Notes: generated from the letters alone by a model not told the origin. 63,816 bases of DNA, filler included, from Hausera hauseri (GCA_046269625.1; 9 parts of 9 records of this genome joined end to end with filler, not necessarily neighbours in it); one strand, 5' to 3'; positions 7,801 to 63,816 are shown, counted from the first letter of the whole stretch. Program-made: numbers and translations.

Positions 7801-10800
7801 TGTGGGGAACTGGGTCACCCCGAAGTTTGGGATTCGCCGCGGCGAGTCTGAAGTCCCGGCCGCCCACCCTATACCACTGGGTCAGGTGGCACCGTTCGCT
7901 GACGCCCCACGACACGCCCCTGGCTACACGACCTCTCAGTATTCCCTCTTCTTTTTTTTAAATAATAAACATATTTACGCAATTGCATTAACACATTTAA
8001 CACTGCGGTTATCTACAACGTCATCTCCACTTTTCTTCACTCATCTGACTTTTATATCACACACAATGGATCTGCAATACTCATCGCTGGAATCCTACAA
8101 TCTTCTTCAACTTATATCCGCCTCCAGATACACTTCCTCATCCGTGATGGCATGAATTCATCGCTCACCATAGACACCGCAGATAAAACCACCACGAAAC
8201 CAAAATCTATCATACTGCTTCAAAAACAATTCTGCTCCCACCAATAACACTTCACCTACTACCGCTTCCGCTCCTTTCCCTCACTGCACCGAATTCTTCA
8301 TTGACAACCAACGCTCCAGCACAACTTGGTTGCAATTCTATCAACTGTGGCTACAGGCAAACAATATCACCGATTCCTTAACCAAGGCACACAATCTACT
8401 CTTCTTACTCCCTAACAATATCAAAACACGAATTCACAACATCCTTGCAATACCTGAACTTCCTGATCCATATTCACAACTTTCCAAAGCCGTTCTTAAG
8501 ATCACGGAACCTTCCATGGACACGATTATACAATGCTTCTTCCTCGACAATGCTATAGGCACACAACGACCATCAGAATTTTCACGCACTTCTTTGGTAC
8601 ATCTGCACACTCTCGGCGTCACTAAAGAATACAATCCCGAACTACTGCGCCACTACTTTCTCAACGCCTTACCCATTTAAATTCGAACTCTACTTACCGT
8701 GGTGGAGGACTCCACGGCTCTTGAAAAATTGGCCAAATTAGCCGATAAAATACATGATGTCCTACACTTAAATTCCCCACCGCTCCTACAACGCAATCCA
8801 TTAATTTCCTTGTTGATACAGGTGCAGTGATTTCCTTATTACCACAATCTTTCACTGTACAAAATTCACCACTCAGAATTAAACTCTTATACACCGCTTC
8901 AGGTCAACTGCTGCACATTTTTGGCACCGCTAAATTATCTTCCATCTTAGCAAAATTTCCTTCACTTTTTCACAGGATGTTCACAGTTGCTAACGTCCAG
9001 ACGGCAATTCTAAGGTCAGGTTTTCTATCACATTATAATTTATTGGTTGACTGCAGTCAACGATGTTTGAGGAGTGCAATCAATGACAGCATTGCTGAGC
9101 ATGTCAATAGCATTTCGAATACTGTGCAGTCGATCGAGATACGCAGGTCAATTTTGGGAAAATCAATAAATAATTCGAATTTCCATAACAATAAATCAAT
9201 TTGTAAATTTTTAAATAATAATACTGATATTCGATCGAGGTTCTATGTCGACAATTGTGGTACTGTCACCAATGTTCATTCACTTGACGAAATAACTTCA
9301 TCCAACACCATTTTTAATTTGACTATCTTACATCAAATACCACTTGACTGCACATCACAAAACAATTCACAAATTGAATCCGCTACTACTCAACCTCTTT
9401 CACCATCATCATCGAATTTATAACAGTTGCTTACAACTTTACAGCAATTCATTACCACATCATGTCCACGCGTACTTAAAAAAATCGTTCGTTTACCCCT
9501 ACAAATAGCACTGTACATCACATAATTACACAGCATCAACGACCAATACGCCAAAAGGTACGACCACTGTCACCTCGTCGTAGACAGGCTGTAGAAGCTG
9601 AATTTCTTGAATTAGAACGCTCCGGAATTGTACGCCGTTCCAAATGTCCTTGGTCGTCACATTTACACGTTGTACAAAAAAGGACGGTACTTTTAGACCA
9701 TGCGGCGGACTACCGCCAGTTGAACAACTTAACAATCATGGATGCGTACCCCTTACCACTCATCAAGGATATCTTGCATTGCCTTAATTCAACTACCATT
9801 TATTCGACCATCGATTTGGCCAAAGCATACCACCGAATACCGGTGGCACCCGAAGACATAGAAAAAACTGCTGTCACTACTCCTTTTAGCCTCTACGAGT
9901 ACCTGTTTATGCCTTTCGGTTTGCAAAATGCCGCACAGACCTTTCAGCGATATATTAATTTGATTCTCTCAGATTTCCCGTTTGTGCACCCTTACATTGA
10001 TGATATTCTGATCGTTTTGTCTTCAGCCAAATAACACGAGGAATACATTCATGCAATATTCCAACGCATTAACCACCACAATCTCTAAGTCACTTTCGAC
10101 AAATGCTACTTGTTTAAAAAGCGCATCAACTTTTTGGGCCACGTTATTTTACCAGACGGAGACTCTCCTCAGCCAGACTGAGTTGAGGCCCTTAAAATAT
10201 CCAGTTACCACGTACGACCACCGAAATGCGCAGCTTCCTTTGTACACTGCACTTTGTACATAAATATGTACCATATTGCTCAGAGTTGACAGCACCATTT
10301 GCAAATTTAAGCGGTGGCAAAAACATTAGCCAATCCAGTGGACACCTGACTTGGTAGATAAACTTTATAAATTACGCGAAGGAATCAAGACCGTCGACAT
10401 TCTCGCTTTCCCCAAGCCTGATGCGGAACTCATCCTTACCATTGGGTTAATAATTTATTTGTCGATTTTTTATCTAGGTCGGTTGGTTCGATTCATTTTT
10501 CACCGACTTTTACGCAAGCTCAAATTTAACAAAACCAGCCACCTCAAGACATGTTTAATTCTTTCAAGTCTTGCACAGTGGTTGACGGAGTAGCTTTAGA
10601 CACTTACAAACCAGGTCATTCCTTAATAATTCTCGCGCCATCATTGCAAAGGCAAGCATTTAATAGCCATCCCTCTGCGGAGCACAAACACAGACACTAT
10701 AGCTGACGTTTTCATTCCTACATGGATTAGCAAGTTTGGATAACCTCGTTTCATCATCACGGACCAGGGTCCACAGTTTGAATCCAACCTGTTCAAATCC

Positions 10801-10976
10801 CTTGTTACCCGATTAGTGATCCATGACATACATACTACGCCTTACCATCCCCAATCGAATGGCCTCCTAGAACGCTTGTACCGAACATTGAAAACGTCTC
10901 TAAGAATCCTTGCAGAGTCCAACACTAGTTGGACGAATCTTCTTCCGTTTGTTCTGCTTGGCTGGCGGAACACTCC
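7801..10976 (+). mobile_element. Gypsy family A copy 2 (5' terminus present, internal deletions, cut by contig end)
   Basis: Starts TGTGGGG where CDC5L homology stops; Ubl-Gag, LVDTGA protease, RT YIDD, integrase YHPQSNGLLER; clearly homologous to copy 1. Confidence 0.93.
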
Positions 10977-11076
10977 NNNNNNNNNNNNNNNNNNNNNNNN
11001 NNNNNNNNNNNNNNNNNNNNTTAATTAATTAANNNNNNNNNNNNNNNNNNNNNNNNNNNNNNNNNNNNNNNNNNNN
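10977..11076. other. Artificial contig linker N44-TTAATTAATTAA-N44 (also 17817-17916, 24056-24155, 30703-30802, 36762-36861, 42315-42414, 47498-47597, 59484-59583)
   Basis: Eight identical 100-nt spacers with stops in all six frames. Confidence 0.99.
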
Positions 11077-14000
11077 TTGGTGCCATTTTAACTTTTATTC
11101 CTTTAGCGTTATATCGTCTGCATGTCTTGCAATAAGCGTTGTAACTTTTAACCAACTTCCTTAACTTGGGGATCCAATACTTTTGTGAAACCTCAGCTAT
11201 TTGTTGATTTATTCCTCCACAATGCTTTAATTTCATGTGATAGTGTTCCACGATGAGTTTTGCTAATTTTTCCTTGTTTGATAGAATTACTGGGTATTTA
11301 TACTCCCATAGCAAGAATTCACTCGTTACTAATCTACTATTACTCCTAATTAATGCATCTTCTGTAATTACGGGATTAGCTTTTTTTAGTTCTACTCCTC
11401 TTTCCAATGCTTTTAGCTCTTCAGCTAATTTGTTCTTTTGATCCTCCTTCAATAACAGTACTCTAGCTTTTTTGAATAACTGACTTTCATCCTCATCGCT
11501 TTGATCGTCCGTTTGGTTGTTTTTCTATTCTTTAACTTTCATAATTATAAGTTGGCTCCATCTCGAGTTCTCCCGCTCTGTTTCTTCTAAGATAGTTCGT
11601 TCAGTCGAAATATTCGTATGTAACGTTAATTTTTCTTTTCTTTATCGAATCCTTCTTTAATAGTCGGTTGTATAGGCCAACTTCCCTTTGGTTTTACTAA
11701 AAATTCCGGTCCCTGCCACCACAACTGGTTCTTAGCTAGTTGAATTATTGTGGAACCCCTAGTTAAAACGTCTGCAGGGTTAATTTTCGTCGGAATATAC
11801 CTCCATTGAGCTCCTTTTAACTTTTCTTGAATATAACTAATTCTATTCGCTACGAAAGTTTTGTATAGCTTTCCATGTCTCACCCAATGTAGTACGTCCA
11901 TACTGTCGCTCCAATAACACAACTTCTTGTCGTCGTACTCTAATGCCGTCGAAACCTTCTGTCCTACTTTTACTCCTGTCACAGCAACTAATAACTCCAA
12001 TCGCAGTACTGAAACCACTTTTCTTGGTGATATTTTACTTTTCGCTACTATTATGTTGCTAGTTCTTCTATCCCCTGTGGTGACCATGTAAGCGACGGCT
12101 CCATAAGCATCTTTGAACGCATCACAGAATATATGTATTCCATATGGTGACTGATCGGCTATTAGGACACGTCTTATTTGAACATTATCCAAATCTTGTT
12201 GTTCCGATACCCATTCTTTCGCTTGCTTGATTAAGTGGTCTGGGAGTTGTTCGTCCCAATATGCGCCATGCATTCACATTTCTTAAATAATCAATTTTCC
12301 TTTCATTAAATAACTACTGAGAAACCCTAATGGATCAAATATTCTAGCTACTGAGCTCAAAAAATTTCTTTTTGTAGTAATTTCCTCTAATTGGACTCTT
12401 TTATCGAAAAAGAATACATCACTATTAGCGTTCCACCTCATACCTACAGTTTTTGTCTTTGTCTCTTCATCTACAATCTGGTAACACGCTGATATTTCAT
12501 ATTCCGGTATGATTTCTCGTAACCTCTCGGAATTTTAGACCCACTTTCTCGCAGACATACTAGCTTGGCTCCCCATCCATTTCAAATCACAGTACATCTT
12601 CACTGCTTCGTTCTCTGTCTTAACAGACACCAAGCTATCGTCCATATACGTAGCGTTTTTAACAACCCATGCCGCTTCAGGTACACGTTCTGCGTGTTTC
12701 TCGGCGTTTACACGACTTACTAATTGCGCTAGGTATAATGATGTATTCAATCCAAATACTAGTCTCTTAAATTCGTAGACTTTCTCAATATTTCCTTCCT
12801 TCCATAGAAATCTTAAGTATCTTCGGTCTTCCTGTGCCACCCCAATTTGTAGAAACATTTCTGTAATGTCACACACCATAGCAATTTCGTATTTTCTAAA
12901 CCTGATTAATATGTCTACTAAGTCTAATTGCAACTTTGGTCCTTGGTGGATCATATCATTCAAACTAAGACCCATATTTTTTGAGGCTGCATCGAACACT
13001 ATTTTAATTTTCGTCGTTTCTGCATCTCTTCTTACGACCGGAAAATGTGGTAGAATCCAACCCGTTGTATTGGTTTTCAGCACTTCTGTGACGTTCTTAA
13101 TATACCCTTTCCTTTCGTGCTCGACTATTTGATTCTGGTAACCTTCCTTCAAGCTCAAATACTTTTCTAATTTGTTTTCAAACAGCGATAACCGTCTCCT
13201 AGCAATTCTATTATTATCTGGCAACTCTTGTGGGTTTTTCTTCCATGGAATTTTGACTTCGTACCTATGATTAACGTACCTCATATCTCCCTTGGATCTC
13301 TCCATTATTCTCTCTTCTTCCTTTGTCCACTGTTGGTTCTTTTCTAACATATCTTCTAACCTCCATAACCGCTCTAAATCATCCTTTAACGCCTCTTCAC
13401 TTAAGAAGAAACATCTAATAAAGTTGGATCGCTTCTGCCATGGTCTTGTTGATATTGGTCCGATACAGGTCCACTCTAGTGGTGTTAATCGAGTCACGGG
13501 TTCTCATTCTTTCCCGGATATTTCTTTGATCGCTTGGTGAAGCTGACTATAATTTACTCTTATTAAACCCTCAACCTTCCCTGACTTTATAACATTTGGG
13601 AAAGGTATTCCCCTTAAATGGTTCCATTTGTTTCTCGATATATTCCAATTGGTCGCGTTTAAATTACCTACAACGTTTTCGATTGTCATTGCTGAGACTT
13701 TCGCTTCTAACTTTCTATTTAGACTACAGAGGTAAAATTCGACCCTTGCTGCACTTCTCCTCCTCTTTTTTCCGCCTAAGATCTCTACCGAAATCGATTC
13801 TGGCTCTTGTTCTAAACGCAACCTTTCTGCTATTGAAGCACTAATGTAACTGTCAGTGCTAGCATCATCTAATAAAACATTGATCTTTTCTTTATACGTC
13901 CCATGGCGCACAATCACCGGAATTGTCCTCAATGACACTTCATTTTTCTCTTCTGTGCTATATCTTCCTGTTACGTAGCTCTTATTTTGATCACTCCCGA

Positions 14001-14151
14001 GCTTTTCTGATTGACTCGCGTTTCTCTCACTCCCACTCAGTGATGGTTCTCTCAACTTCTCTTATCTGATGTTATCTGTCTTATGTACTCGATTACTAAT
14101 TCGTCCCGCTGGCTTTTCGCTCCTATGTGACTCTGATTCCATTAATGTTCT

Positions 14152-14304
14152 ATGCAAAAACCGACATTTGTCTCCGTTTCTGCAGTTCCCCTGTTGGTAA
14201 TATCTGCAAATTTTGTCCTTGTTTTCATTCTTTTCTTCCTTATTTTCATGGGAGTATTTTCATTTCTTCCCGAAGGTGCAATTTCCCTTTGCGAACGCCC
14301 AACA
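14152..14304 (-). other. Two tandem CCCH (C-X7-C-X5-C-X3-H) zinc fingers in BEL/Pao Gag
   Basis: CWAFAKGNCTFGKK*KYSH (TGA in place of the third Cys) and CRYYQQGNCRNGDKCRFLH, same frame. Confidence 0.85.
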
Positions 14305-15438
14305 CGCTCCTTTAACCATTGAGACCTTCTCTTTAATTTCAGTGAAGTGATTATGATGGTAATTTACCTTTTTCTCTTTCGATCCATGACTTTGGTGGTA
14401 GTCATTGCATTGGAAACACTTAAAGTCATCAGGTCTTCCACCTCTTTGCTCTTTTGTCTCTAATACGTCTATCCCGTGTGCGGATTCCGCTGATACTCGA
14501 CGAATACCGGCTTCTTCCTCCAACCAATATTTTAACTCGCTGACGGTTTCATCTCTTCTACAACTTCTGCGATATCTTTCCCATTGACTGATTAATGTCT
14601 CCAGTAGCTTCTCTAGAACAATTTTATATAGCAGCCCACTATCAAGGTCATTCTCTTTGTTCAGGTTTCTAAGTCGCACCACAACGGCTTCCAGTAGTGA
14701 TACTAAGTTGTTTATCTGCTTGACATTATTCACACTTACTTTCTCGAATTTTTGGATTTCATCTATCAACGCAGCGATTTTTCTTTGCTTTTCACCATAA
14801 AACCTTTCGAGTTTCTGCAGTATTGCTTCGTACGATGTTTCGCTGATTCCAAAATTTGCTACTAACTTCTTTGCTTCACCACTGAGACAAGCCTCTAATT
14901 TTATCTGTTTTTCTACTGCTGATATTAGAGTTCGATGTACACAAACTTCGAACGTTTGCCTCCATTTCTCGTAGACAGCAACGTGTCCGCTAAATTTCGG
15001 CAATTCTATTCTACTCAAGGGAGGACACAAATTATCTGTAACTGAAGTCTATGTGGTTTTTTGTCGACTGCTTTCCTGGTCGCTCCGATTAGCGGCTATA
15101 CCCCGTAATCCTGCCACCACATCAGCATTCAGTTGACTCGGGACCTCTCTATCTTGAATCAGATCTTCTAGCTCATCGGTTCTATTTTGCTGCCTCGCTA
15201 TAATCTGAAGTTCCAGTATTTCCGACACTGTTTGTTCATACGTGTCACAAAATTCGTTGTAGGTCTTTCGCAATTCTTCTCCTGAATTTTCCACGTATAG
15301 TTTCCCGTGCATATTTTCTAATCGTGACTTCATTTTGTCCTTCCTCAGAAATCTCGTTTTAAATTCCTTTGTTAATCGCTTTGCATTCTCTGAGCTCGCC
15401 TTCAGCTTCTTCTCATAATTTTTACTTGACCTTTTGCT

Positions 15439-15659
15439 CCCTCCTTTTAATCCAAGAATTAAATGTATGGTGGTTCCATGAACTAACTCCTCCACATCCT
15501 TGTCGTCCCTATTCTTTTACTTTGATGGAAGAGCTTTAAAGATTCTGCCGATACCTTCAATTTTCCTTCTATTTTGACAATCAATTCATTTACTGATCTG
15601 ATCTTCGCCACATTGATTTGGGTTAATACACCTTCTCGTACTCTTATAAACACTTGTTT
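15439..15659 (-). other. Ubiquitin-like domain ending in LKGG at the N-terminus of BEL/Pao Gag (one frameshift near 15508)
   Basis: KQVFIRVREGVLTQINVAKIRSVNELIVKIEGKLKVSAESLKLFHQSKRI/DDKDVEELVHGTTIHLILGLKGG aligns end to end with ubiquitin. Confidence 0.85.
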
Positions 15660-16050
15660 GACATTTTTCTCATCTTTTCTTTTCATTTGGGAACCGTGAT
15701 CCTCTTCTTTCTGTATCCATTTTCTTTCCGTCTCCTTGATGATTTCCACTTCTCTCTTCTCCGTCATTTTATCATCCGGCTAGGATCTTTTTATACCCAT
15801 GGCCATTTAAAATGATTTTAATTAGCACTCTGCCCAAGAGTGAACCATCTCCCTATTAAGTGGCACTTCAACAATTTCACCGCAACTCACAGAAGCACTT
15901 TTATAACCTTCTCCGACCTGGTCTGTGATTTTCGCTTCTTCAATTTTAAACAAACGGAGTTGAGAAGTACCGAAAGCAAGAAGAAAGACAGAATTTTCTT
16001 AAGACGATCAGAAGTCGTGGTTTACACTCTCGGATTACAAGGGGGAGCGT

Positions 16051-16069
16051 AAACCACGCTCTGCTACCA
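16051..16069 (-). promoter_or_regulatory. Primer-binding site complementary to initiator tRNA-Met
   Basis: Minus strand TGGTAGCAGAGCGTGGTTT upstream of the gag ORF. Confidence 0.85.
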
Positions 16070-16404
16070 TATTGAGAATTTACATAGCTTCTACATTGTA
16101 AAGTTGTTCTAACATTCCACATATCGACCTCAGAATAAAAAATTTTATCCATCAAAATGTTATTCATATTAACATGTAAACCCACATTAACCCATTTTAT
16201 ATTGAGCCCAAATATTTTTAAACTCCAATCGCAAATGTATTTATCTTTAAATAATTTCCCTTTCTCCATTAATTTATTTATGCTTAGATTTAGTTTATTT
16301 CTGTAAACACATACCATAATTTGGGAGGAGTAGCTCTCATTCATCTTATTTTCCAACCCCGCTCTTTCGTCCCCATCGGACAAACAAACAAATCCCCCAC
16401 AACA
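16070..16404 (-). repeat. Putative 5' LTR of the BEL/Pao element
   Basis: Minus strand TGTTG…CAATA abutting the PBS, contains AATAAA; no second copy available to confirm the outer boundary. Confidence 0.4.
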
Positions 16405-16559
16405 CACCCCAAGTTGGCATCCGTGGAATCAAGATATAAACAATAACTAATATTGCTATAATTATCATCACTAACCAAAACTATAAAATCGTTAGTTGAC
16501 CTATTTGCTATCCTAGTATTTTTCCAGAAGTAGCAAGATCCCCGCCAACCTTTTGCCAA

Positions 16560-17010
16560 CGACGTATTAAACTTCTCGTAAGCCACATGTACATCAGCAT
16601 TATTTTTAACGCCTGGCAAACAGACGTTGCCCATACGGAGGATTGTCAAAGTCACCTCTGGATAAATTACTTTATAAATTAATGCGGGAAATCTTTTGGG
16701 ATAAAGAAAACCAAATTCGTTATCTGTCTGACGGGAAAGCATGAGATTTACGGTCCCTCCAACATAACAGCATGCCCTTAAACTGTAAGTTCGGTAGTTA
16801 ATAAGTCGAACATCCAAAGTAAATTTTAAAAAAATCCGAGTAACTCGTCGACAACCCGTTCCACACTCCTTTTCAAGGATAATTCTCACTACGATTGCCC
16901 TGCTTTTATAAATGATTGCAGTTGCATAGGGTTCGCGAGGACGAAATACTAAACCATCAAACCGACATGTATTACGTTCGGAATTGTTGGTTAGTGACTG
17001 TGACTGATGT
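16560..17010 (-). pseudogene. Divergent TATA-binding-protein (TBP/TRF)-like remnant
   Basis: NSERNTCRFDGLVFRPREPYATAIIYKS… and YPKRFPALIYKVIYPEVTLTILRMGNVCLPGVKNNADVHVAYEKF match both TBP repeats. Confidence 0.7.
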
Positions 17011-17085
17011 AACAGTAATTATGATAGGTACTGTGAGAGGAACGATATAACTCAATTCATGTTTAGGAAACATAATGTGTCTGAG

Positions 17086-24155: not shown

Positions 24156-27100
24156 AAAAGAATATGAAAAGAAATTACGACTAATGGAAGTCTATCATGG
24201 ATTAAAAGAACCATAAACCAAAGAAGAATGGGCTTTGGCACCAAATAATACTAATATGGCGCGTAAGAAATCTATTTCGCAAGGAATAACTCAATCAGAA
24301 GAACCAACGACATCTCAAAATGTCGATATAGATGAAGAATCCGAAAAGAACCAACCAGACGAAATAAGAGATGAAATAGAAAGTGAATTTATTGGACCCT
24401 TGATCCTCAAACTGACGAAGAATAGAGGTAGAAGCCCATTGCCTAAGAGAAGATCTAAGAACCGCTCACGGTCTCCTATAATAAAAGATTTATATACTGC
24501 TGTGCTAAGAGATGACTCGCCCTCAGATATTTCTATTACGCCTATAGGGATTCTAGAAGAGTTAGAAACTCCCGAGATGATAAATATTAATGACGAAATA
24601 AATGAAATTTATCCGCTCCTCGCTAGTGAAGAAGAGATGGACGATATTAATGATCCTGATGCGAGAAAATGGAAAGGTCGACGTTCATGAAAGAATGCCG
24701 ATGAATTAAAGAAGATGAGAATTAGGTGTCACAATCCAGAAATACTCCGACACAACTTAGAGAGGCTTAAACAGATCAGTAAACAAACAGACATATCTGG
24801 TAAAGAACAACAATTTGCGCAGAAATTATGTAAGATTTTAAAATTACGTCGTGAAGGAAAACTTGATGAAGCAATCGAATTAAGGCAACATGAAGAGGTG
24901 CCACGAGATACGTTGATGAAATGGAACCATGAATTAGAGCTATGGATTAAAAGTGGCGTTGAATTTTCTGAAGGATGAAGTAAAAACGAGGATAGTATTG
25001 ATGTGAAGGTTACTAAGGCTTAGATGCTACTATCTACCTTAGAAATAAATCCAAAAGTGAAGAGAGTAGTCCGTAATTTAGAACGTATAATAAATGAAAT
25101 TCGCTGTGCAATGATTAATCGTCTTAGCGAAAAACCGGTTAGCAATCGAAGTGATACTGATTTAGAAATATTGGCTGTAGACCCGATAGATATTCCGCCC
25201 TTAATGGAGATGATAAAATTTCTTTTGCTAAGCCTAGACGATATACAAACTTAGAGAATCGTATTAAAGTAGAGAATGAAAAAAGATCACAAATCAACAG
25301 TTTAAGAAATCGAATAATGTCCATGAATAATGAAGAAACCGAATACATAATAAAAGCTTGTATCATAGAATTCGACGAATATAAGGATGAGCTCAATTTT
25401 GTTAGCCAATTTATGAATTTCATAAAAGGCCCAGACGATGAATTGAAAGATGCATATAAGATGCTAGACAAAGCAATATTAGCAAAGCCAATAATTGCCA
25501 ACCAGTTATCAGAATGGTTCGAACTAATAACGAGATTAAGCAAATTACTAGAAGACCGTAAGAAAGAATTTCCGGAAAGTGAACCATTTGTAAGAAAACG
25601 ACTAAAAGAAGGAGCATGTAACTTAGATATGATACAAGCAGAGATAAACATCCGAATGCAATTCGCAGCTTTGCGACGATTAAATTTTATGAAGAAGAAG
25701 CAAGAAATGACAATATTGGAAGAAATCTATAAAATGACCGAAGAAACGAACTTTACCGAAAAACGAAATATGACTTGCAATTTTTACTCAAAGTTAAGAA
25801 GCATCCGATGAGAAGGAATCCAACACTTAACAGAGAAACCTATCGACGAGATTTCAATCCAGGACATCGAAAGCCTAGTTATTTGTCCAGAACATAGAGC
25901 AGACCCTATAAAAGCAGTAAGAATCCTGCATAAACCACGACAATGGATGGCCGGTACAGATCAGAATTGTCACACCGAATTGAAGAAAATAAGAAACAAC
26001 CAACGTCTTAGTGTCGAAGAATCTAAGTTCGTTAAGAAATTGCTGGACGCAATGGATCCCGACTCAAAAATTAGAAATGAAATGTACGCATTAGCCTACC
26101 TGTTGGTAAAAATGGCGGAGATTAATGATGAGAAGATGAGACAATTCATGCCCAAATTACAACAAGTTGAAGAAACATGCATCAGAACGAAACAAAGAGC
26201 AATAAGGCTAGTTGAAATAACAAAGGAGTTTGAAGGTTACCGGAATAAATACGCTTTTACCGAATTAGAGATCAAAAATAAGCAAGAAATCGTACAAAGA
26301 TGGCAAAGGGACGTAATTATGGAGCTAACCGATTATCATTAAAAAGGATTCATCAATCATAATGAATTAGGCGAACTACTAAAAATGATTCAATATGCCT
26401 GTGGAAACGGAACAGGTTTCCGAACTACTCAGATAAAAGAAATACAACCGAGACTGAAAGAAATTCGAGAAAATGTCCAAAGAACGAACACAGCTCTAGT
26501 AGACTATGGACTCCCAGATATTGGGAATGAACCTGAATGGGATGCTTATCTAGAAGAAATAACGGCCGAAAATCCGGTAACTGCAGTACACATAGATGAA
26601 ATAGAAATGTATCCGCAGAACAGGGAATTTAATGTGGAGATGCTCCTAGACTCAGCGTTAGCCGAGAAGGACTTAATGAAATCAATTAATGTGGATATGA
26701 CTGAGATTAAGCTCAGGCAGCTCATTCCAACTTTCACTAAATTATCCAGTGAAAACATAATTTACAACACGTTGCCGAAACTTTTAATAAAGAAGTATGC
26801 GAAAATCTTGAAGGATAAACCTGAGGTAACGATGAAAATAATGGTATCATCCGAATGGATGGAAGAAAAAGAATGTGAGCTAACCACTTATTCTTACGTA
26901 AAGGACGTAAGCGAATGGTTATTAAATAATGGTGGAACAAATGGGCTAAATTACAGATTTTACTTTAGAAAAGGAATACTCGACGATTTAGAATAGTTAA
27001 TATGTGTCGGAATTATCCCTGACAAAACAAATCGCATAGTAGTAAAAATAGCCAATGAACAAACGAAAGAAAAAGCCAGACGGAAGGCGAAAACGGAACA

Positions 27101-31047: not shown

Positions 31048-32838
31048 ATGTTGCTGGATCCCACAGTAGCTGAAAGGGAACTGAGCAGTATGTTGAAAAT
31101 AAACATAAACGAAGATAAGTTAAGGAAATTGATTCCAACCTTGATTAAACTATCCAGCGAGAATACCGCATACAGCGCCGCACCCAAGCTCTTAATAAGA
31201 GAGTACGCTAAACTATTGAGAAATAAACCGGAAGCGGAAATTAAAGTGAAAGTATCATCTGAAGGAATGGATGACGAGGAATTTGAATGCACCACTATTA
31301 CCACCGTTGCGGACATTAGACAACGAATAATGTACAAGCATGGTAAGGAAGGAGTTAATTATCGGCTCTATTTCAGGGGTAGGATATTAGATGAATTAGA
31401 ATCCCTAATAGACGTAGAGATCATATCACACGAGGAGAATCGAATAATAGCAATAATTGCTAGTGAGCAAACCAAAGACAAAGCCATAAGGAAAGCACAT
31501 ACAGAACACTGCGTTGCAAAAATCATGGGGATTCAGGACGCCGCAATGTACTTTGAATATTTACAGACGGACGACGATAAACAGCAATACGATAAGAATT
31601 TAGTCCCACTAAGCGAAACTTTACCATTAGCAAAACCGAAAAGACCAATCGGAAGACCAAGAAAAATAAAAGAAGTGGACTATAATGCAGACTTAATTAA
31701 GGAACTAAGACAACTATCGGTACCCACTCCGAGCTCAGATAATGAAGAATTAGTTGAGCTGATGAAGGATTTAATAAGAATAGTTAATTATACCGGACTA
31801 CAAGATGACATACTATCCGAAAAGGAAAGACTAATATATAATATAGCACGGACAATGAAAACGTCGCAATTCAAACTATCTAAAAGTACCCTCCCTGATG
31901 AAACAGTAATTGACAGAATTATGGTAGACAATACGACGGAAGAATTAAGAAATGTTTTGATATATTTAGCTGTAAAATCAAATCCTCTCCGAGAAAATAA
32001 GTTCGACAAGACGATCGGGTTAGCTAGGAAGGCGGCGAGAAGGGTACCTAAAGGAATAAAATGGGTTAAACTATTTGAAAAAGAACGCAATGTGAAGAAG
32101 ACCAATAACTTAGAGGACATAGTGCGAAACATCTCTTCGAGTAAAGGGAAAGAATCGAATTGGTTAATCAATCTACTAACAATGTTAGTGAAGCAGATGG
32201 GAGTGGTCACCATATACGATTGTGACAAATTCAAGGTGAGCCAGAAATACTCTTTGATGGACTTAAAAACATGTGAGGACGCGAGGCCCCACAAGCTCCA
32301 GACAATAGAGAAGAAACATATACTATATCAACAAAGTGAGTTAATTGCAATGGATGCAACAGAATGCATGATACGTATATCCCGCAGCGTATTTCATTGT
32401 GGTAATATGCACGGCCATTTTTCAGTAATCAAACCTACCACACAATTGATAACCATGAACGTGGACGGACAACACTGCTTAGGAGCCCGGTCAACCGGTA
32501 AAATGGTTTGGGACGGCATGGAATTGGAAGCCCAAGAAGGAAAAATAATTAGAGCCTACAAAGTGGCAGTGGGAACATTGAACATGCATACCGGTTATTG
32601 TGTCGGAGGAGAATACGACACAGGAAAGGGAATAGAAGAAGAAATAGTAGTCGTAGATTTTTACGAAACCGAGTTAAGATCCTTAAAAGCGATGTTTCAT
32701 AGTGTTACCAAACTATTCACTGAAAATCAGAAATGTCACATTCATGACGGTGCTTGCACGTTCCGAAGTTCGGTTATTGTATGGAATCCACCCTCAAAGA
32801 AAGACTGCAATTTTATCAAAATCAGAGTTAAAATTTAA
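31048..32838 (+). CDS. Open polyprotein segment: Ubl domain + AT-hook + internal signal peptide + N-terminal glycoprotein ectodomain
   Basis: One uninterrupted 596-aa frame: IKVKVSSEG…TVADIRQRI…YRLYFRGRILDELESLIDVEI; KPKRPIGRPRK; WLINLLTMLVKQMGVVTIYDC…. Confidence 0.85.
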   Translation: MLLDPTVAERELSSMLKININEDKLRKLIPTLIKLSSENTAYSAAPKLLIREYAKLLRNKPEAEIKVKVSSEGMDDEEFECTTITTVADIRQRIMYKHGKEGVNYRLYFRGRILDELESLIDVEIISHEENRIIAIIASEQTKDKAIRKAHTEHCVAKIMGIQDAAMYFEYLQTDDDKQQYDKNLVPLSETLPLAKPKRPIGRPRKIKEVDYNADLIKELRQLSVPTPSSDNEELVELMKDLIRIVNYTGLQDDILSEKERLIYNIARTMKTSQFKLSKSTLPDETVIDRIMVDNTTEELRNVLIYLAVKSNPLRENKFDKTIGLARKAARRVPKGIKWVKLFEKERNVKKTNNLEDIVRNISSSKGKESNWLINLLTMLVKQMGVVTIYDCDKFKVSQKYSLMDLKTCEDARPHKLQTIEKKHILYQQSELIAMDATECMIRISRSVFHCGNMHGHFSVIKPTTQLITMNVDGQHCLGARSTGKMVWDGMELEAQEGKIIRAYKVAVGTLNMHTGYCVGGEYDTGKGIEEEIVVVDFYETELRSLKAMFHSVTKLFTENQKCHIHDGACTFRSSVIVWNPPSKKDCNFIKIRVKI

Positions 32839-43094: not shown

Positions 43095-45817
43095 AAACCA
43101 CAACACTTTTCGCATTGCTCCACTCTAACCGCTCCATTTGCATCAATAAGTTCTGTCAAGAAAAAACGGCCTATTCAATGGACCGCCAAGCTAGTCAACG
43201 CTTTCGATCACCTCAAAGACAATTTAAAAACTGTAGAATCCTGGCATATCCAGACTCCCATGCAGAGCTCTTCTTAACCACAGACGCATCTACAACAACT
43301 GCAAGTGCTGTCCTTTATCAAGTCAAAAATTGATCCCATTAGCCATTGGAATTCTTCTCTCGAAAATTCACTGCACAAGAGCAAAGATAATCCACCTTTG
43401 ACTGAGAGTTGCTTGCAATGGTCCTTGCCGTGAAACACTTTAAACATTTACTAACTGCACAAACTTTTACAGCACAAACGGACCACAAGCCCTTGTTTTA
43501 AATTCTCACAATGAAATCGCCTTCTCCACGTTAGGAGTGGAAAATATCATATTTGTCCACATTTAATTTTCAAATTAAGCATCTAAACGGAGCTGACAAT
43601 TTATTAGCAGACTTTTTGTCCCGATCGGTCAGCTCGGTTGATTTTACACCAATTTTCCTCAGTCCAAACTTCAACAAAACCAGCCACCTCCTGACATCTT
43701 TAAGTATTTTAAATCGTGCAAAACCATCGATGGTGTGGCCTTTGACACCTCCAAACCTAACAAACCTAAAGTCATCCTCTCTGAATCGCTTCAAAACGAA
43801 GCATTCAACAGCTTCCATTCGTTGCATCATCCCGGTGCCAAGGCCACGTTCCGACTCTTACCACGCAAAGTAGTATGGCTGTCGATAAGCTCTGATGTGC
43901 AGACATGGGTTAGGCAGTGCGTGGCATGCCAAAAATACAAAGTTACTAAGCATTTAAAGCCACCACTATTTCATTTTCCCTGCACGTCTCGTTTCGAATC
44001 TGTTCACATTGACCTTGTAGGCCCACTACCCTTAGACAACGGCCATTAGTTCATCCTTACAATGATGGACCGTTCCTTGCGATGGCCAGAGGCTGTCCCG
44101 CTTCGGAGCACCAACACAGAAACCATAGCAGACGTTTTCATCCGCACTTGGATAAGCAGGTTTGGATCAACTCGCTACATAATTTCGGACCCAGGTCCAC
44201 AGTTCGAATCCAACCTGTTTAAAGATCTTATCAATCGATTGGGAATTAACCACATTCGCACATCACCATATCATCCCCAAGCGAATGGCCTTCTTGAACG
44301 CTTTCACCGAACGATAAAAACGTCTCTCAAAATCCTTGCTGAGTCCAATCGCAGATGGACTTCGTACGTTCTGCTTGGCTGGCGGAACACACCATCTTCT
44401 TCTATAGGATGTTCACCCGCAGAAGCATTATTTGGCACTTCCATCAGATCATTATTCGAACTGACTGAGCTGGACAATACTCCTGCAGACGAAACCATAC
44501 AAGCGGCTCAGAGATACATCGTTGAGATCAGCAAGGACTCATTTTGCAGACTGTTACATGTAAATAAACCCTACATACCCAACGATTTATATATTGTCAA
44601 GTTCGTTTGGCTAAAGAATCAGATGCCGTGTTGTTTTTAACCTCAGTATGTCGGCCATTACAAAGTAATTCACATACACTCCCACAACATCATTATTCTC
44701 AAAGACGACAAAGAAGTAACGGTCCACATCAACAACGCTAAACGGTCTTTCTTCCTTGACAATGCGTCTACCATCGAAACCATTTCTTCACCAACATCTT
44801 TACACGACGCGCAGCAATCCAACAATTTATCTTCCATCTCTGCTCAATTTCTTATTCCACTTTCCCCTACGATTTCTCCCAAAACTTTCATTTCAATTTC
44901 TTCTCACAATTCAGCCTCTTTCTCCCCATCTGATTTTCCACCTTCAAGCCTTCCAACACCTCCTCCATCCCCTGGTAACAACCTGCTTTCTCCTCTTGCA
45001 ATACCTCCTCCATCAAACACCATTTCGACTTATCCAATCTCTCCATCAACACTTTTCATGATTCCAACCTTTTGCGTACCACTTACCAACTACTTACCTT
45101 CGCCTTCTCCATCCGCTTGCTCTCTTTCTCCTTGTACCTGTCCTTATCCTCCCACACCTTCCTCATCTTCGGCGTTTTCTTTTCCTTTTATCCTCACACA
45201 TCGTCTTCTACACTTTTCACTTCCGCTTTACAACTTCCTCCGCTTTCCATTTCTATCCCTATCTCTCTTCCTCTGTCTACCACTACCTCTATTTCATCTT
45301 CCTCTTCCACTTTTTCACACAATTCCATTCCAATTTCTTCTCCAACCTTTCTCTCTATTCCTTTATCCGCCACTATACCTTTTATCATTCCTCCGTCTTC
45401 TAATACCTTCTTGAATACCATTATCCATTTGTCTTCAACAATCTCTCTTCCTCCTTCACCTTCTTCTTTTCTTCATTCTAATTCGTCTTCGCACGATACA
45501 ACACTCACAACAAAATCCGAAAAAATTTTCCCAAACATCAACCTTTGCAGACAAACACATCGCATAAATGCAAAACGCGCAGAGTTATATTTAGCAAGTA
45601 TAGCAGGGGAAAATCGATAGAAGGCACCCAACGTCTTGTTCACACGAAGACCAGCTAACACAGACACTTTTTCGTTTTGCGGTTGTTTTTCTTTCTGTAT
45701 CATTTAACTTTTATAGTTTCCACTTTGCCACAGGGGTGACGTGGTGCCCACAGCGGCCGTGCCTTTTGGCGTCCGTTGCCGCAGCGTCGGGTACATAGTT
45801 GGACTCGATTCCCCGCT
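43095..45817 (+). mobile_element. Gypsy family A copy 4 (RNase H, integrase and 3' end only)
   Basis: LTTDAS, HHPGAKAT…CVACQ, VHIDLVGPLP, YHPQANGLLERFHR, S/P-rich tail, 3' terminus homologous to copy 1. Confidence 0.92.
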
Positions 45818-47623
45818 TCGAAAATTTTACAAGTACTTCAACAAATGTATTAAGTACATCTACTCTTTCTCCTTCCTCAAAATTCTCTACTTCAAGCTCA
45901 ATAACTCCATCGTCAATATCAGTAAGTACTAAAACAAAAGTACATCAACACCAGTACCAGTACCTACAGTCAAATCAAGAACAATGTAAGACTACTCGAA
46001 AGTCACACCTACACTTTGATTGAGCTGTGCTATGAGGCGAACGGATACGGGTAATGATAATTCTGTATCCCATTTAGAAGAAATTTCTTTTGTTGAGTCC
46101 ATCAACACGTCTTCATTTAAAAGTAGCTTAAATTTCAGACTACACAACAAATCATATATAGACTTTAATTGCTTTTTGTAACTTTAGGTCCCATTACAAA
46201 GCTTTACACGATTCTTGTAATACTGATATCAGCTGTCCTCTCGAATCTGGTATTGGAAGCTCTATTAGCTCAATCGATGTCAATTGTGGGATTAATTGTA
46301 CCGCATTGGGCTCCAATAGTAATGTCGATTCCGATTTATCATCTCCAAGCAATCAGTCCGGTCATTGTTTCCGACATGATTGTCATGATTTTCCGCCAGT
46401 AACTGAACAAGATATTCGACCTGTTCTTATTAGCAATTTTACATAGCCCAAATGTATTTGAAAATATTAGAGATGAATAATGATGAGAATTCCAAATCTG
46501 AGAAAAAGTCTTGAACATTACCAGTTCATTGTTAATTACTGTAACGTGCATGAAATGGCTGCCAAACTAATGACCTGGACTTGTAAAAAGACATGGTGAT
46601 GTTGCTGCCATGTAAAATAGACAAGATCCGATGAGAAAGCAAAAACGGGAAACAGTTGTAAATTCAAGAAACTCCTCCCGGACCCCATGTAAGTATATCG
46701 GTTTTGGGATGATGCTTATGAAGAGAAACGAATACAAGGTGAAGCAGACATTTACCGATTTTGGATTAATTATGGATTGACTTTATTGGAGTCCACTTTT
46801 GAGCGACTTTTGCCGGAAGTAGTGTGGAAATGTGCTTTCGGTTCCACCCTCCTCCCTCCCCCTCTCCCAGGGGGTCGATAAATCGATTTTTCACATGTGC
46901 CAATCGATAGTGCACACTGTGTACATCGATTGGTGCAAGTGCAAGTGTGCAGCACATGTGCAAGTGTGCAAAAATCAATAATATTAGATTTCCAATATTT
47001 CAAAAAGTGCTGATTATCACTCGTGACCGGGTGAAATGGGTAGAGCACACGATGGACTGTGTGAATGTGCAGTTAGAATTTAAATCGATTGATTGGTTTT
47101 CAAATGATTCCAATTGGTGTAGAACCGCCACGGGACCGGGTGCAATCGGAAGCAAACATGACGTATTATACAAATGTGCAGTTAGAATTTAAATTTATTG
47201 ATTATTTATTGATTAATATCGATCGAAAGTGCAAATTGGCTATATTTTCTCCATGTTTTTAAGCATCAAGGAAGCAAAAATCGACCCAACATTGAGCGGC
47301 GCCAGAGAGAAAATCGAGTACGCCAAACTCGAATTTTGAGTCGGAAATTCGAAATTCGAAGATTTTCGAGTTCGAAAATCGATGTTCGAACTATTCGAAA
47401 ATTCTAACGGTAGGAATCGATTCGATATATATGAAAACCTCCATGTGCATAAAAATTAGTTCATGAAAATATACTATATAGATACAAAATCAATATTNNN
47501 NNNNNNNNNNNNNNNNNNNNNNNNNNNNNNNNNNNNNNNNNTTAATTAATTAANNNNNNNNNNNNNNNNNNNNNNNNNNNNNNNNNNNNNNNNNNNNGGG
47601 TGGATCCTCGCAGGATTTCGTTA

Positions 47624-56445: not shown

Positions 56446-56526
56446 GGGAAGCGCGGAGGCGAAAGGAGGAACAACCTCACTGGACATCGAGGAGGACACA
56501 AGACAGCAGAGCAGCTACAAGGAATC

Positions 56527-59289: not shown

Positions 59290-59408
59290 TTTGCAGAAAA
59301 ACAGGAACTGTTTGCAGAAAAACAGGAACTGTTTGCAGAAAAACAGGAACTGTTTGCAGAAAACAGGAACTGTTTGTAGAAAAACAGGAACTGTTTTTCT
59401 ACAAACAG
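59290..59408 (+). repeat. 5 x ~21-bp tandem repeat ending in a perfect 18-bp hairpin
   Basis: TTTGCAGAAAAACAGGAACTG units; CTGTTTGTAGAAAAACAG-GAA-CTGTTTTTCTACAAACAG at 59370-59408. Confidence 0.95.
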
Positions 59409-59583
59409 TAATATGAAACATACTGTGCTAAAAAATTGAATGTATTAAAATGTATGTGTTATTAAAAGGTTTTTGTAAGATGGNNNNNNNNNNNNNNNNN
59501 NNNNNNNNNNNNNNNNNNNNNNNNNNNTTAATTAATTAANNNNNNNNNNNNNNNNNNNNNNNNNNNNNNNNNNNNNNNNNNNN

Positions 59584-59655
<72 letters not shown>
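59584..59655. repeat. (CT)n microsatellite
   Basis: Pure CT dinucleotide run at the contig start. Confidence 0.99.
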
Positions 59656-59659
<4 letters not shown>

Positions 59660-60530
59660 AGTCCTTCGCAAGCAGAATTTCCACCCCACCCCCACCAATC
59701 CCTGTTTTCCTCCGCCTGCATTGTGTCTATACATTGGTGTTGTTTTGAAACAGTCTCGATACGGTTTCATTTGGTTGCGTTTTTGTTCTTGTACTAACTC
59801 AACCATCACCGCCAGAGCGCTCTTCTTAACGGGCTCTCAAAAGGACAGTTGTAGTCCCAGAAGGCTTGTGGAAGGAGGAGGCTGAGCTTTATTTCCCTGC
59901 CGGTGGTGAATATGAGGTGAACCAAGGTCCTCTAGGTGGTAGTGTAATGTTTGACCTCCCAGAAGTGATCAACCACTCTCGAGCCTTCGCTCATTAAATA
60001 TAGGCTTCTCTGCAGTTGCCGTGAGACACGGAGTGGATGTGGGCAAAGATCTTATCTGACCATCATTCATCAACCCTGGCACGGTGTAGCAGGACCTGGC
60101 TATAATTCTCCATGGGGTCCTCATCGACTCCGTTTCCATTCCTTAGTTAAGTGGTTACATTACAATAGAGCGCGTTGATGCCAGAAGCCAACTCTGCTCC
60201 ATTCAAAGAAAATGGCTCAAAAATGGTTTATGCGGTTTAATAAAGTGGAAAATTTTTGTGATCAGAAATATTGTGTATGTTAAAATAACATAAGGAATTA
60301 TTGTTTACGCGCAGGTGTCACTATCTTGCTATCCTTGATGGTTTTTCTACTACTGGTGGCGGAGACGATGCCACCAACATCAGACGCGTTGCCGCTGATA
60401 GGTAAGTCTGTATGGTTTCTTTATAAGCCCCAGTGGTTAGAAGCCACAACAAAACACACAACAATACTGCATGTTTTTTTTCCCTGTCACTTGCTTAAAT
60501 ATGAGCTGACAAACAAACATATTACGGCGA

Positions 60531-61616
60531 ATGAAAACGAAATACAATTGCTTTGCTTTTCCGTGGGAAACCGAACATAAACAATTGTTTGGGAAGAGAG
60601 TATCCGAGAAAAGTCCAGTATCCGGCAGAGGAAAATCCGGTGGGGTAATTATTGTAATCATATGCGATTTGTTCAGCAACCATTTTATTGATATGCCTTT
60701 TTATGAGTCCCATTATCGTGATGTTGATACTGCAATATTTCGAAATAACGGTTATCCATCAGAATTTAATGTGAGTGAGAGAAATCTTTTTATTTACATC
60801 TGTAACTGTTTTTTGCGTTGTAAAAATTCAGTTCCTAACTTACACCGTATTTACTCAGAGTTGGTGCAGACATCAATCATCAATCAAACTTGTTTCTTTA
60901 GTACGAATAAGAGAGAGTTAAAACAGCCTCATTGCTCTGTTGATTTGTCCAATTGCCCTTCACATGACGATCTAGACGCAGAAATATTCGGCTGTTCTGC
61001 CAGTGTTAGTGATCAGTTCATTAAAAAGTTAAGAGAAGACAGGAGTGGTGATAATTTGCTGACGCATTTTTACGATTTTTTCAAACATTTATTGAATGAC
61101 ATTTTTCTTGGCAAAAAGCCGACAGTTTCCAATGCCTTGGGGATGTGGAAAGATCCCTTGCAGACTTTATATCACCCGGAGAGAAATTTGATTGTAAATA
61201 TACTGTCAATTTTTTCACGTATTCCATTGGCATCTGTAATGATTCTCGACTTTTCCCGAGACATCACTTATCACTACATAGATCACGTACGGTGTTTTCT
61301 TGGACGGGTTTTGTGTTCCACTTTTTTCACCGCAAATAAAGACTCTGATCTCCTTATGAATATCTTCACGTGTTCCTTATCAAATACTATCATAAAGATC
61401 CAACTGTTTTCATGGTTTGGCCAACTCCTCCATTATAATTTAGGATCCAACAGACTTGTTCATTTATTACGAAATGTATCGATTGAAGACGGAATTTTCA
61501 CCAGTGATGGGTTTTTGATAAACTTGCAATGTGTACTTCTGCATCTTTCGAGTCCGTTGTTGCTATATACGTTTGATAAGACAATGTTAATCCAACTGGA
61601 ATCCACTAAACATTAG
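60531..61616 (+). pseudogene. UBE4/Ufd2-like ubiquitin conjugation factor E4, N-terminal/core fragment
   Basis: LFSWFGQLLHYN…FTSDGFLINLQCVLLHLSSPLL resembles the Ufd2 core SDGF.LNL..VL..L..P; no U-box seen. Confidence 0.55.
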
Positions 61617-62016
61617 ACGTTTGCCAGAAATTCGAAGACGGCATTGTTTCATCCTATTCTGTTTTTCAAATCATAAAGTTGGAACTCGAATGGTGCAAAA
61701 GAAAAATCTACATACCAAAAAGTGACGGCAAATATTTTCAAATACTCTTTACCGATGTTACACATAAACTCGATAGGCGACTTAATTTATCGGCAGAGGA
61801 AATAACAATTCGGGCAATTCGTACATCATTTAGTCTTGATGGGAAAATTATTTCATTGAGTATTGAACTAGACATTGCCGTAATTGTTGAGACGAATCCA
61901 CTGCGAATGGATAATGAAAACAATTCGTCATTGGTCTGTAAAATAAACCTGCTGTGTAGTAAACACGGAGTGACCAACGAAGAAACATTACGTACAGGGA
62001 ATTCGACTACTCCGAC

Positions 62017-63816
62017 GTGTGGGACTTGCAGCAGCGAGGCGGAATTCTCGGCCGCCCACCATGCGCCATTGGGTCGGACGACGCTGTTCGTTGCCACCCC
62101 ACAATACGCCCCCGGGAATACCACCTGTCCCTACTCAATCTTCTTTTTTTAAATAATGAACATATCCATACACACAGCATTACACTTACATACTGCAGCC
62201 ATTTACACCTGTATCTCTATCTTACCTCACTCCTCTGATTTCTACCTCAAATATAATGGATCTCTAGTACCCCTCGCTGAAACATTACAATCGTCCTCAA
62301 CCCGCATCTGTCTTCACATCTACTTCCGTATCCGTGGTGGCATGGACTCGTCACCCGCAGTTGACACCACGGAGAAACTTACTAGGTCGCAGATCCCCAT
62401 CATCCATTTACCCAAACAAAGCATTTTAAACACTTCAACACAGCACACCCTCCTTACGCATTTACCCTACACCGAATATTTTCTCGACAGCCAAAACTCT
62501 ACTCAAACTTGGCTAAAACTGCATCAATTTTGGCTCCAATCACAAAACGTCGTCGACTCTTTAATCAAAGCCAACAGCCTCTTTTTCCACTTACCAGCCT
62601 TTATCAAAACTAAAATTAACAATATAATCGATATTCTTCAGCACAATGACCCATATACCCAACTCTATAATGCAGTTCTCAAGCTTACTGAGCCTTTAAT
62701 CGATTCAATCATTGAAAGGTTCTTTAACGATAACGCCATTGACCTTCAGAAGCCTTCTGAATTCCTACGCACATCCTTGTCTTACCTCAACACCCTTGGC
62801 GTAATATCTGAACGCAGTCCCGAGCTTATTCGTCGCTACTTTTTAAATGCATTGCCCCTTCAAATAAGAGCTTTGCTTATTGTGATCGAAGACTCCACGG
62901 CTCTGGACAGGCTAACCGGATTGGCAGAAAAAGCATATGAAGTATTGCACTCACACACAACAACAACTATCTCTGAGGCATTGAAAACAGACCAACAACA
63001 ACAAAATGCAATGCTGCAGTAGCAAATAGCACAATTGCGCACGGAAAATAAAAAGTTACAGAACACAATTAACAATATAAGCGAAAAATTAAACGAATTA
63101 ATGCTGCCTCGACGGGGTTTTTCAAGAGCTGCCTCCGCTAATATATTCAGTCAACGTCAAAGACGGTCGCCTTTGCCCGCGCGGTCATCCATTTGCCATT
63201 ATCATAGAAAATTTGGTAATATTGCTCAAAAATGCTGCATCGGTTGCAAATTTCACTCCCCGACTTTAACACAAGAAACATCGTTTGAATCTGAAACTCA
63301 AAATTTGGAACAAAAGCACAAAAATGCCTACATGGCTGTACCTACAACACATAACTAAACTAACACTACTACATTCACACAACACAGTAAACTAAACTCA
63401 CCAACTACAAAAAACTAATTTCGCCACTAGTTCACACAACAAGTCCTAGCAAAGGCAACAACCCTCAAAAGACAGCCGACACATCTCTTTTGCTGTATTC
63501 ACATTGGAAGCAGCAGTCGTCACTCCAACAAAGCAAAACATTAACTTTCTTAGAGACATCGGCGCAGCAATCTCTTTATTGCCATCAACACAACACATCC
63601 AAAACAATTACACTTCAAAAAAGAAACTGTTCACTGCGTCCGGAGAACCCTTACAGATTTTTGGAGTTACCAAATTAACATTCACTCTTCCACACCTCCC
63701 AAACACATTCGCATGGAAATTTACAATAGTCAATGTACGCACACCTATATTGGGTTCAGACTTTCTGTCCTACTACCATTTACTTGTAGATTGCAAACAA
63801 TGTTCATTAAAATGCG
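62017..63816 (+). mobile_element. Gypsy family A copy 5 (5' terminus, Ubl-Gag, protease; runs off window)
   Basis: TGTGGG start, leader homologous to 7801-7960, Gag, CHYHRKFGNIAQKCCIGC, frameshift heptamer, protease ILGSDFL. Confidence 0.93.
62156..63022 (+). CDS. gag: Ubiquitin-like domain (…HIYFRIRGG) fused in frame to Gag
   Basis: DFYLKYNGSLVPLAETLQSSSTRICLHIYFRIRGG|MDSS… followed by Gag (KPSEFLR…RYFLNALPLQIRALL). Confidence 0.8.
   Translation: MNISIHTALHLHTAAIYTCISILPHSSDFYLKYNGSLVPLAETLQSSSTRICLHIYFRIRGGMDSSPAVDTTEKLTRSQIPIIHLPKQSILNTSTQHTLLTHLPYTEYFLDSQNSTQTWLKLHQFWLQSQNVVDSLIKANSLFFHLPAFIKTKINNIIDILQHNDPYTQLYNAVLKLTEPLIDSIIERFFNDNAIDLQKPSEFLRTSLSYLNTLGVISERSPELIRRYFLNALPLQIRALLIVIEDSTALDRLTGLAEKAYEVLHSHTTTTISEALKTDQQQQNAMLQ

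Follow-up and report, generated by a model that had tools for sequence, protein, structure and literature searches.

Two unrelated retrotransposon clades with long terminal repeats (LTRs), one of them CsRn1-like Gypsy and the other BEL/Pao, carry a ubiquitin-like domain (Ubl) ending in two glycines (GG) immediately before Gag. Both are represented in a stretch of DNA of 63,816 nucleotides (nt) from Hausera hauseri (GCA_046269625.1), hereafter the window, which is composed of nine contigs (C1 to C9) joined by artificial spacers (44 N, a 12-base linker and 44 N). The fusions are not peculiar to this assembly and are present in relatives from many samples, and Ubl-GG-Gag is a recurring element design with two or three origins rather than the outcome of one host's pressure on three families. 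Ubl-GG probably acts as a spacer that host deubiquitinases (DUBs) would cut, giving Gag a fixed start, and of the functions considered in the initial annotation of the window N-terminal processing fits best. Family A (Gypsy, with a CHCC knuckle) occurs twice in C1 (1-10976) and again in C3 (17917-24055), C7 (42415-47497) and C9 (59584-63816), the BEL/Pao element in C2 (11077-17816), and a third family, B, with a gB-type envelope ahead of protease and reverse transcriptase (RT), in C4 (24156-30702) and C5 (30803-36761). Decay has affected every one of these copies. As initially annotated, the lineages are three separate ones: the RTs of families A and B are identical at 41/102 positions, and that of BEL/Pao aligns to neither.

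In the BEL/Pao element the Ubl lies on the minus strand at 15439..15662, ends in LKGG and contains one frameshift near 15512. It is followed at 11077..15438 (minus strand) by Gag (DUF1759), protease, RT, Pao peptidase/RNase H and the start of the integrase, within which C2 stops, the whole being interrupted by several stop codons. The class assignment is based on DUF1759 Gag, protease, RT and Peptidase_A17 in this order and on an RT that nests among BEL elements. When all six frames of the window were scanned with a ubiquitin profile built from 96 distinct ubiquitins taken from viral contigs, the top three domain scores belonged to the family B domain in C5 and to the two halves of the BEL Ubl. 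With X placed at the frameshift, the BEL Ubl reached 22.5 bits against this profile and 38.8 bits against a profile of six relatives' Ubls, and 0/1000 shuffles scored as high in either case. A primer-binding-site-like motif upstream of it (16069-16058), read as GSRAW/C in four relatives, places the Ubl inside the element.

A protease-RT search listed 120 full-length BEL relatives. The Pfam ubiquitin family PF00240 was detected in six of the 120, all among the top 12, and a seventh (P0016) begins just before GG. In each of these relatives with a Ubl the GG stands 124-149 residues ahead of the first Gag motif, compared with 145 in the window copy. In a quick RT tree of 118 relatives (two were dropped for short alignments) the seven Ubl-GG relatives and the window element formed one clade with no other member (SH-aLRT 99), the closest RT identity of the window copy to them being 50%. 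These relatives derive from Logan, ENA and JGI assemblies.

In the C9 copy of family A the Ubl (62129..62341, plus strand) ends in RIRGG, with a stop at 62150-62152 after the first predicted strand, and Gag (62342..63355, plus strand) has a Met right after GG, a DUF7041-like capsid, a CHCC knuckle and a stop at 63020-63022. The Ubl in C3 (18095..18310, plus strand) is an open frame ending in RPGG, and that of the second copy in C1 (7937..8151, plus strand) has a frameshift near its start and ends in LIRDG; GG is thus found in C9 (62336-62341) and C3 (18305-18310), and DG takes its place in C1 (8146-8151). The domain begins about nine codons upstream of the nearby Met in C9, across one stop, where C3 and the relative P0122 are open. 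The label CsRn1-like rests on the CHCC knuckle and the DUF7041-like Gag, for which Atlas gave only DUF7041 leads, under 0.9. One knuckle match each was found in C1, C3 and C9, and one or two in 28/35 clade relatives; two copies occur in 26/35 clade members versus 7/115 other matches.

A Ubl had initially been called in all three families. The calls for BEL/Pao and for the C5 copy of family B, which has no GG, are significant, while that for family A failed on the window copies and was rescued by relatives. Alone, the window copies yielded neither a Pfam nor an Atlas match, and beyond the GG tail the C9 copy had no ubiquitin match (232-394/1000 tail-kept shuffles scored as high); since only the last ten residues of the A leader match ubiquitin, the call is unproven on the window alone. 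A profile of 23 divergent Ubls of the clade, from which the window subclade, two near-ubiquitin rows and the pair P0171/P0225 had been left out, scored C9 at 20.2, C3 at 18.6 and ubiquitin at 51.7 bits, with 0/1000 shuffles as high even when the tail was kept. A PDB search with the A profile returned ubiquitin chains in 60/60 matches listed (of 407), and the A Ubl shows a third-position bias (10, 13 and 22 of 50 codons). The putative Ubl of family A accordingly stands by way of relatives rather than of the window copies. An AlphaFold model of the C9 copy, whose alignment included two near-ubiquitin rows, places residues 1-70 in the beta-grasp succession strand-strand-helix-strand-strand (pLDDT 69-90 for residues 11-70), and has a retroviral capsid fold behind. 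Its Ubl aligns to FAT10, SUMO, Fubi and ISG15 at Z 4.7-5.1, and the Ubl matches as a whole span Z 4.6-5.1; a Foldseek search with the model matched only capsids, none at E 0.001.

The relatives of family A were collected with a profile of the window copies against 1.84 billion representatives (150 listed of 408 matches). A GG-ending segment precedes Gag in 37/150 listed matches, and Pfam ubiquitin was recognized at E<=0.01 in 12/59 scanned relatives, in two of them at E 1e-22. In a quick Gag tree (148 matches, two dropped as short, and three window rows) 35/37 Ubl-GG proteins clustered with the window copies, the group having 50 members. Twelve of these have no GG; they are predicted proteins whose start lies at or inside Gag, past the GG position, and all 35 relatives with an intact N-terminus carry Ubl-GG. 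The remaining two, P0171 and P0225, have Ubl-GG before an ordinary DUF7041 Gag, lie far from the main clade as a pair (aLRT 99) and are likely a third origin. A word-based search found no relatives of the A Gag, and 47 metagenome loci related to the A RT were without Ubl, CHCC or A-type Gag upstream, being distant (at most 43% identity for full-length best segments) and in many cases short. Viral contigs scanned for the A integrase, the BEL RT and the BEL clade contained at most a single weak locus.

Across these proteins the domain drifts while its end is kept: the median pairwise identity is 19% for the Ubl versus 34% for Gag (528 pairs), and G71 and G72 are conserved to at least 90% in a 41-row alignment. 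Proline directly after GG blocks DUB cleavage, and S, M, G, T, A and V in this position are stabilising. The residue after GG was S in 18, M in 8, G in 5, N in 4, T in 3, A in 2 and V, D, Q and K in one protein each, so that one of these six stands in 37/44 and proline in 0/44; R or K occupies the R72 position in 32/44. Cleavage after GG is a likely prediction from the sequence. Four Ubls look recently refreshed from host ubiquitin. P0010 and P0012 (BEL), each of which has a drifted sister, match ubiquitin at 39/42 and 35/42 positions in the first half and at 21/34 and 10/34 in the second, and P0152 and P0194 (A), with 53/76 and 56/76, are nested among Ubls at 13-17/76. P0010 also contains a partial second ubiquitin repeat directly before the Ubl (residues 125-225), as in polyubiquitin mRNA; its fresh half resembles the viral-contig ubiquitins and not the human chain, and it may come from a different host than the other relatives.

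Extra sequence at the N-terminus is expected to hinder the assembly of capsids. In the proposed mechanism, translation would often begin far upstream, in a variable LTR/leader that probably gathers host mRNA pieces by template switching. A host DUB would then cut after GG, and the first residue of Gag would be the same small one irrespective of the upstream sequence, allowing the element to tolerate cargo; the Ubl would occasionally be re-supplied by recombination with host ubiquitin mRNA. The internal, GG-less Ubl of family B is predicted to escape this kind of cut and would represent a separate capture. This reading is favoured by the architecture across both clades, by a GG that is kept while the domain drifts and by sense-strand host pieces upstream.

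Leaders of 95-874 residues precede the Ubl in 21/37 A-type proteins, and leaders of 149-724 residues in six BEL relatives. Host pieces named by Pfam occur in six leaders, namely Rrp44+CNOT1, histone H2A, SCC3 HEAT and 5'-nucleotidase in four of family A and kinesin+Sec24 and TRAF in those of BEL, so that two are mosaics of unrelated genes; in 30 flank frames, 5/5 Pfam-named host pieces were sense to the element. DnaJ-, Ulp1-, HSP90-, ARP8- and GMF-like pieces were recognized by eye in leaders of relatives, had no Pfam match and were not counted. Coding is near-gapless on the contigs of P0003 (6030/6244 nt) and P0012 (7608/8172 nt). In the window, a 160-codon open, AT-rich leader (15946..16428, minus strand), whose chance of staying open is about 2e-6, spans the primer-site-like motif of the BEL element in the frame of four relatives, and an intronless TBP piece (16344..17018, minus strand; TBP E 1e-14) lies upstream of it. 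Upstream of the C9 Ubl-Gag a 180-codon open frame (61610..62152, plus strand) runs in the same frame, and an intronless Ufd2/UBE4-like host piece (60510..61616, plus strand; Ufd2P_core E 9e-7) lies upstream of this element. In C1 an intronless CDC5L piece (6904..7795, plus strand) is colinear with human residues 6-307 and scores 228 bits with the human chain, 220 with a second animal-type chain and at most 180 with fungi; its last frame, with no stop in between, leads into strand one of the C1 Ubl. These scores lean towards an animal as host, the candidates considered being a myxozoan, a microsporidian and a flatworm. A GC-rich segment upstream of this Ubl (7793..7925, plus strand) repeats, in inverted orientation, the 3' end of the A copy that lies upstream (4278-4404) and recurs in C9 (about 61983-62115). 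A primer-binding-site-like 12-mer of family A (5741..5752, plus strand), presumably of tRNA-Leu type, is likewise read within the leaders of 12/39 A-type proteins. Translated cargo is likely for BEL and suggestive for A.

Several points weigh against this reading. The long leaders of the relatives belong to predicted proteins and may be spliced models joining decayed neighbour genes, an objection that the contig spans of P0003 and P0012 limit for some relatives only. Among relatives the three frames are all represented over the A primer-site motif (6, 3 and 3), the GC-rich segment before the A Ubl has no codon-position bias (15, 15 and 13) and is the sole flank sequence that different A copies have in common, and the in-frame continuity in C1 and C9 could be chance (about 1 in 9). 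The 180-codon frame in C9 had no PDB match, and Atlas found nothing for the A leader. An intronless DIM1-like piece is co-oriented beside a non-LTR protein-primed DNA polymerase (pPolB) in C6, so host pieces may be common in the genome for reasons other than LTR capture. The Z of about 5 is middling and was obtained with a model whose alignment held the near-ubiquitin rows, the A tree is quick, with about 200 columns and aLRT 85, and the GG set was partly chosen by a pattern fixing the residue two before GG as aliphatic or Phe. Moreover, no copy in the window has two LTRs.

A more far-reaching version is possible, if doubtful: within an unsampled lineage of animals, three or more lines of LTR retrotransposons would have arrived at the same device independently. 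A hypervariable leader would then produce a translated host mosaic, insulated from Gag by a DUB-cut, ubiquitin-renewed spacer. The elements would act as gene-shuffling vectors making chimeric host proteins free of capsid cost, and the family B Ubl would be a worn relic.

It is unlikely that the Ubl instead begins at its own nearby start and is cut like ubiquitin-ribosomal fusions, the leaders being untranslated flank joined by gene callers and the cut serving as an aid to folding or setting Gag's first residue. A Met does stand near the Ubl start in C9 and BEL, the three frames of the A primer site and the GC-rich segment without codon bias agree with it, and the residues after GG are mostly small, the residue after a cut ubiquitin setting the half-life (PMC7047443). 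However, the nearby Met comes only after the strand predicted to open the A Ubl, the BEL primer site has one and the same frame in 5/5 and stands within the 160-codon open, AT-rich leader, and coding in P0003 and P0012 is near-gapless.

Less likely still is that the freed Ubl itself is of use to the element, either conjugated to, or jamming, a host E1, E3 or DUB that restricts retroelements, as a counter-defence. The cut would expose a conjugatable GG, most proteins have R or K at the R72 position, and the domain changes faster than Gag. Against it, the L8/I44/V70 patch and K48/K63 are not preserved among the BEL Ubls, and at least four replacements by near-native ubiquitin have been tolerated, more in keeping with a spacer than with a tuned antagonist.

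A single capture, in which the Ubl-GG leader was transferred between Gypsy and BEL elements sharing hosts, is likewise improbable, a shade more so than a useful freed Ubl. Both families occur in the window, and the match between their Ubl profiles has a probability of 97.5%, but each set scores higher with ubiquitin (hhalign 61.6 and 91.8) than with the other (57.7), the further pair P0171/P0225 belongs to a distant Gypsy group, and primer sites and leaders differ; the comparison of single with multiple captures is limited by short, drifted Ubls. The independence of captures first proposed for all three families is supported for A and BEL, each set being closer to ubiquitin than to the other, whereas family B is kept apart.

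That pressure in one host drove three recent captures, family B included, as a shared system is very improbable, for although both sequencing runs with C1 contain family B and the CpG ratios of C1-C5, C7 and C9 are alike, the two GG fusions are older than this genome (they recur at no more than 50-60% identity in assemblies from ENA, JGI and Logan), and the B Ubl lacks GG and matches neither set. The pressure specific to this host that had been suggested initially is not supported, because each fusion is an old trait of its clade and recurs in many further assemblies; none of the tests spoke for anti-retroelement defence or proteasome shuttling, and a pressure specific to a wider host lineage is a possibility. 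The common host assumed at first is borne out in part, by the co-occurrence of A and B in two runs; one host for all three families was not confirmed. Words of C1 are present in two runs of differently coded organisms (shares 0.35 and 0.07), which both also contain family B across all 30 bins (14,609 and 1,185 contigs) and one of which may be the source sample, and the CpG ratio is 0.80-1.13 in C1-C5, C7 and C9 versus 0.44 in C8. Family B has a very high copy number in both runs, its summed depth being about 40-170x higher in X1 than in X2 across bins. Long-read error as a cause of the breaks was rejected, since the mismatches to other copies of family B are predominantly transitions.

The case of family B stands apart and is weaker. 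Its internal Ubl lies at 31231..31458 (plus strand) in C5, within a 603-codon frame that continues into the gB-type envelope (PF24664 from about 32164), and at 26823..27050 (plus strand) in C4, with one stop at 26994-26996. The C5 domain was recognized by Pfam ubiquitin at E 6e-4 and by a viral ubiquitin in PDB at E 0.017, and scored 14.0-19.2 bits (14.6 against the ubiquitin profile) with 0/1000 shuffles as high. The C4 domain, identical to it at 35/76 positions, is not significant alone (154-522/1000 shuffles), and shows a third-position bias (30, 17, 48). GG is absent from the end of both, where an aliphatic strand is followed by a helix. The B Ubl matches neither the A nor the BEL set (hhalign probability <4%), and membership of family B in a shared system, as first proposed, is not shown. 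A single-sequence fold of the region reached a mean pLDDT of only 40.5. The order in family B is PF24664 (E 5e-17), RVP, RVT_1 and RT_RNaseH; about 1000 codons upstream of the envelope in C4 had no Pfam match and no recognized Gag motif. A word-based search, which covered longer proteins only, found no relatives of the family B protein, nor did viral or metagenome contigs yield any; as evidence of absence this is weak. An AT-hook-like motif lies downstream of the B Ubl (about 31630-31665), and another directly after GG in P0012 (residues 712-723).

No Ubl-Gag fusion was described in the literature searched, a search outside which lay Repbase, Dfam, GyDB, subscription journals and supplements (notably that of PMC13524379); the main text of PMC6338049 does not contain the word ubiquitin. 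The following comparisons hold for the accessible text of the sources cited. Precedent is provided by cytopathic pestiviruses (BVDV Osloss, CP1, CP Rit; PMC8310069), in which, as here, ubiquitin derived from host mRNA is inserted in the polyprotein and host hydrolases cut behind it, so that the following protein has an authentic start; in CP Rit another host piece stands in front, as in the Ubl-GG leaders. Those insertions are sporadic, near-identical to ubiquitin and found in dead-end variants, whereas Ubl-GG has long been fixed in its retrotransposon clades, stands before the capsid protein and has diverged to about 20% identity, and cleavage has been shown there but is a prediction here (PMC8310069). 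Ubiquitin precursors (polyubiquitin, UbL40, UbS27a and Fubi-S30; PMC7047443) share the N-terminal Ub or Ubl that ends in GG and is removed by DUBs, but they are host genes with conserved ubiquitin, no variable leader and no mobile element. In LTR-mediated retroposition (PMC5131818) intronless host pieces are likewise flanked by LTR sequence through template switching; those retrocopies lie inside or between element sequence, without an in-frame leader or spacer, and ubiquitin is not mentioned in the main text. The design would thus work like the known pestivirus-type spacer combined with LTR-mediated mRNA capture.

Family A shares with the CsRn1 clade the CHCC knuckle (C-x2-H-x9-C-x3-C) and a DUF7041-like Gag (PMC2582038), to which it adds the Ubl-GG leader and, often, a second CHCC copy; a primer site of tRNA-Trp type was not seen, no search aimed at one having been made, and ubiquitin has no mention in that paper. 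With BEL/Pao elements (PMC3118150) the window element shares DUF1759 Gag, protease, RT, Pao peptidase/RNase H and integrase in one frame, and its RT nests among BEL relatives from marine invertebrates; ubiquitin is absent from that survey, and Ubl-GG with a long leader is confined to one clade here. Family B has the envelope upstream of protease and RT in common with GAG-ENV-POL errantiviruses with a gB-type envelope, an order reported for Nematoda, Bryozoa and Platyhelminthes, and differs in its internal GG-less Ubl and AT-hook-like motif, ubiquitin having no mention in the main text (PMC13524379).

A spacer of this kind would be of interest in three respects. We know of few fixed extra domains in LTR retrotransposons, and a host-cut ubiquitin spacer, fixed in two superfamilies and preserved through its GG alone, would, if true, give retroelements a novel means of maturing Gag and of transporting host sequence at no cost. 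With identities running from 79% to <20%, the Ubls form a natural series of variants of ubiquitin with which DUB requirements could be addressed. Finally, if true, the arrangement would offer a directly testable route for exon shuffling by retroelements.

Some further features of the window concern the ends and flanks of family A. The segment 7793-7925 matches 4278-4404 and 45720-45830 as inverted repeats of about 135 nt (scores 48 and 34; 0/300 shuffles), versus scores of 27 and 18.5 as direct repeats (37/300 and 213/300 shuffles as high); the inverted match is weaker in C9 (8-11/300 shuffles) and absent in C3. These ends may belong to a long LTR with inverted repeats at its borders, or may form a 5'-3' panhandle in the RNA. 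The C1 frame 4406-6154 had no useful PDB match. In C7 a KIF1-binding-protein piece (KBP_C, E 9e-10) lies at about 46400-46575 on the sense strand downstream of the element. The region 59584-60500, which has a CpG ratio of 0.56, holds a (CT)n microsatellite and, about 130 nt ahead of the Ufd2 frame, a single acetylcholine-receptor membrane exon with AG and GT at its borders, and is either genomic flank or a mis-join.

Two contigs hold other elements. C8 (47598-59483) contains a retrovirus-like element that is almost complete, comprising RT, two RNase H domains, integrase and four further long frames, these last without Pfam matches; with a GC content of 0.48 and its CpG ratio of 0.44 it probably originates in another genome. 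C6 (36862-42314, minus strand) contains a decayed pPolB with an endonuclease VII domain, adjoined on the same strand by the decayed intronless piece of a DIM1-like rRNA methylase.

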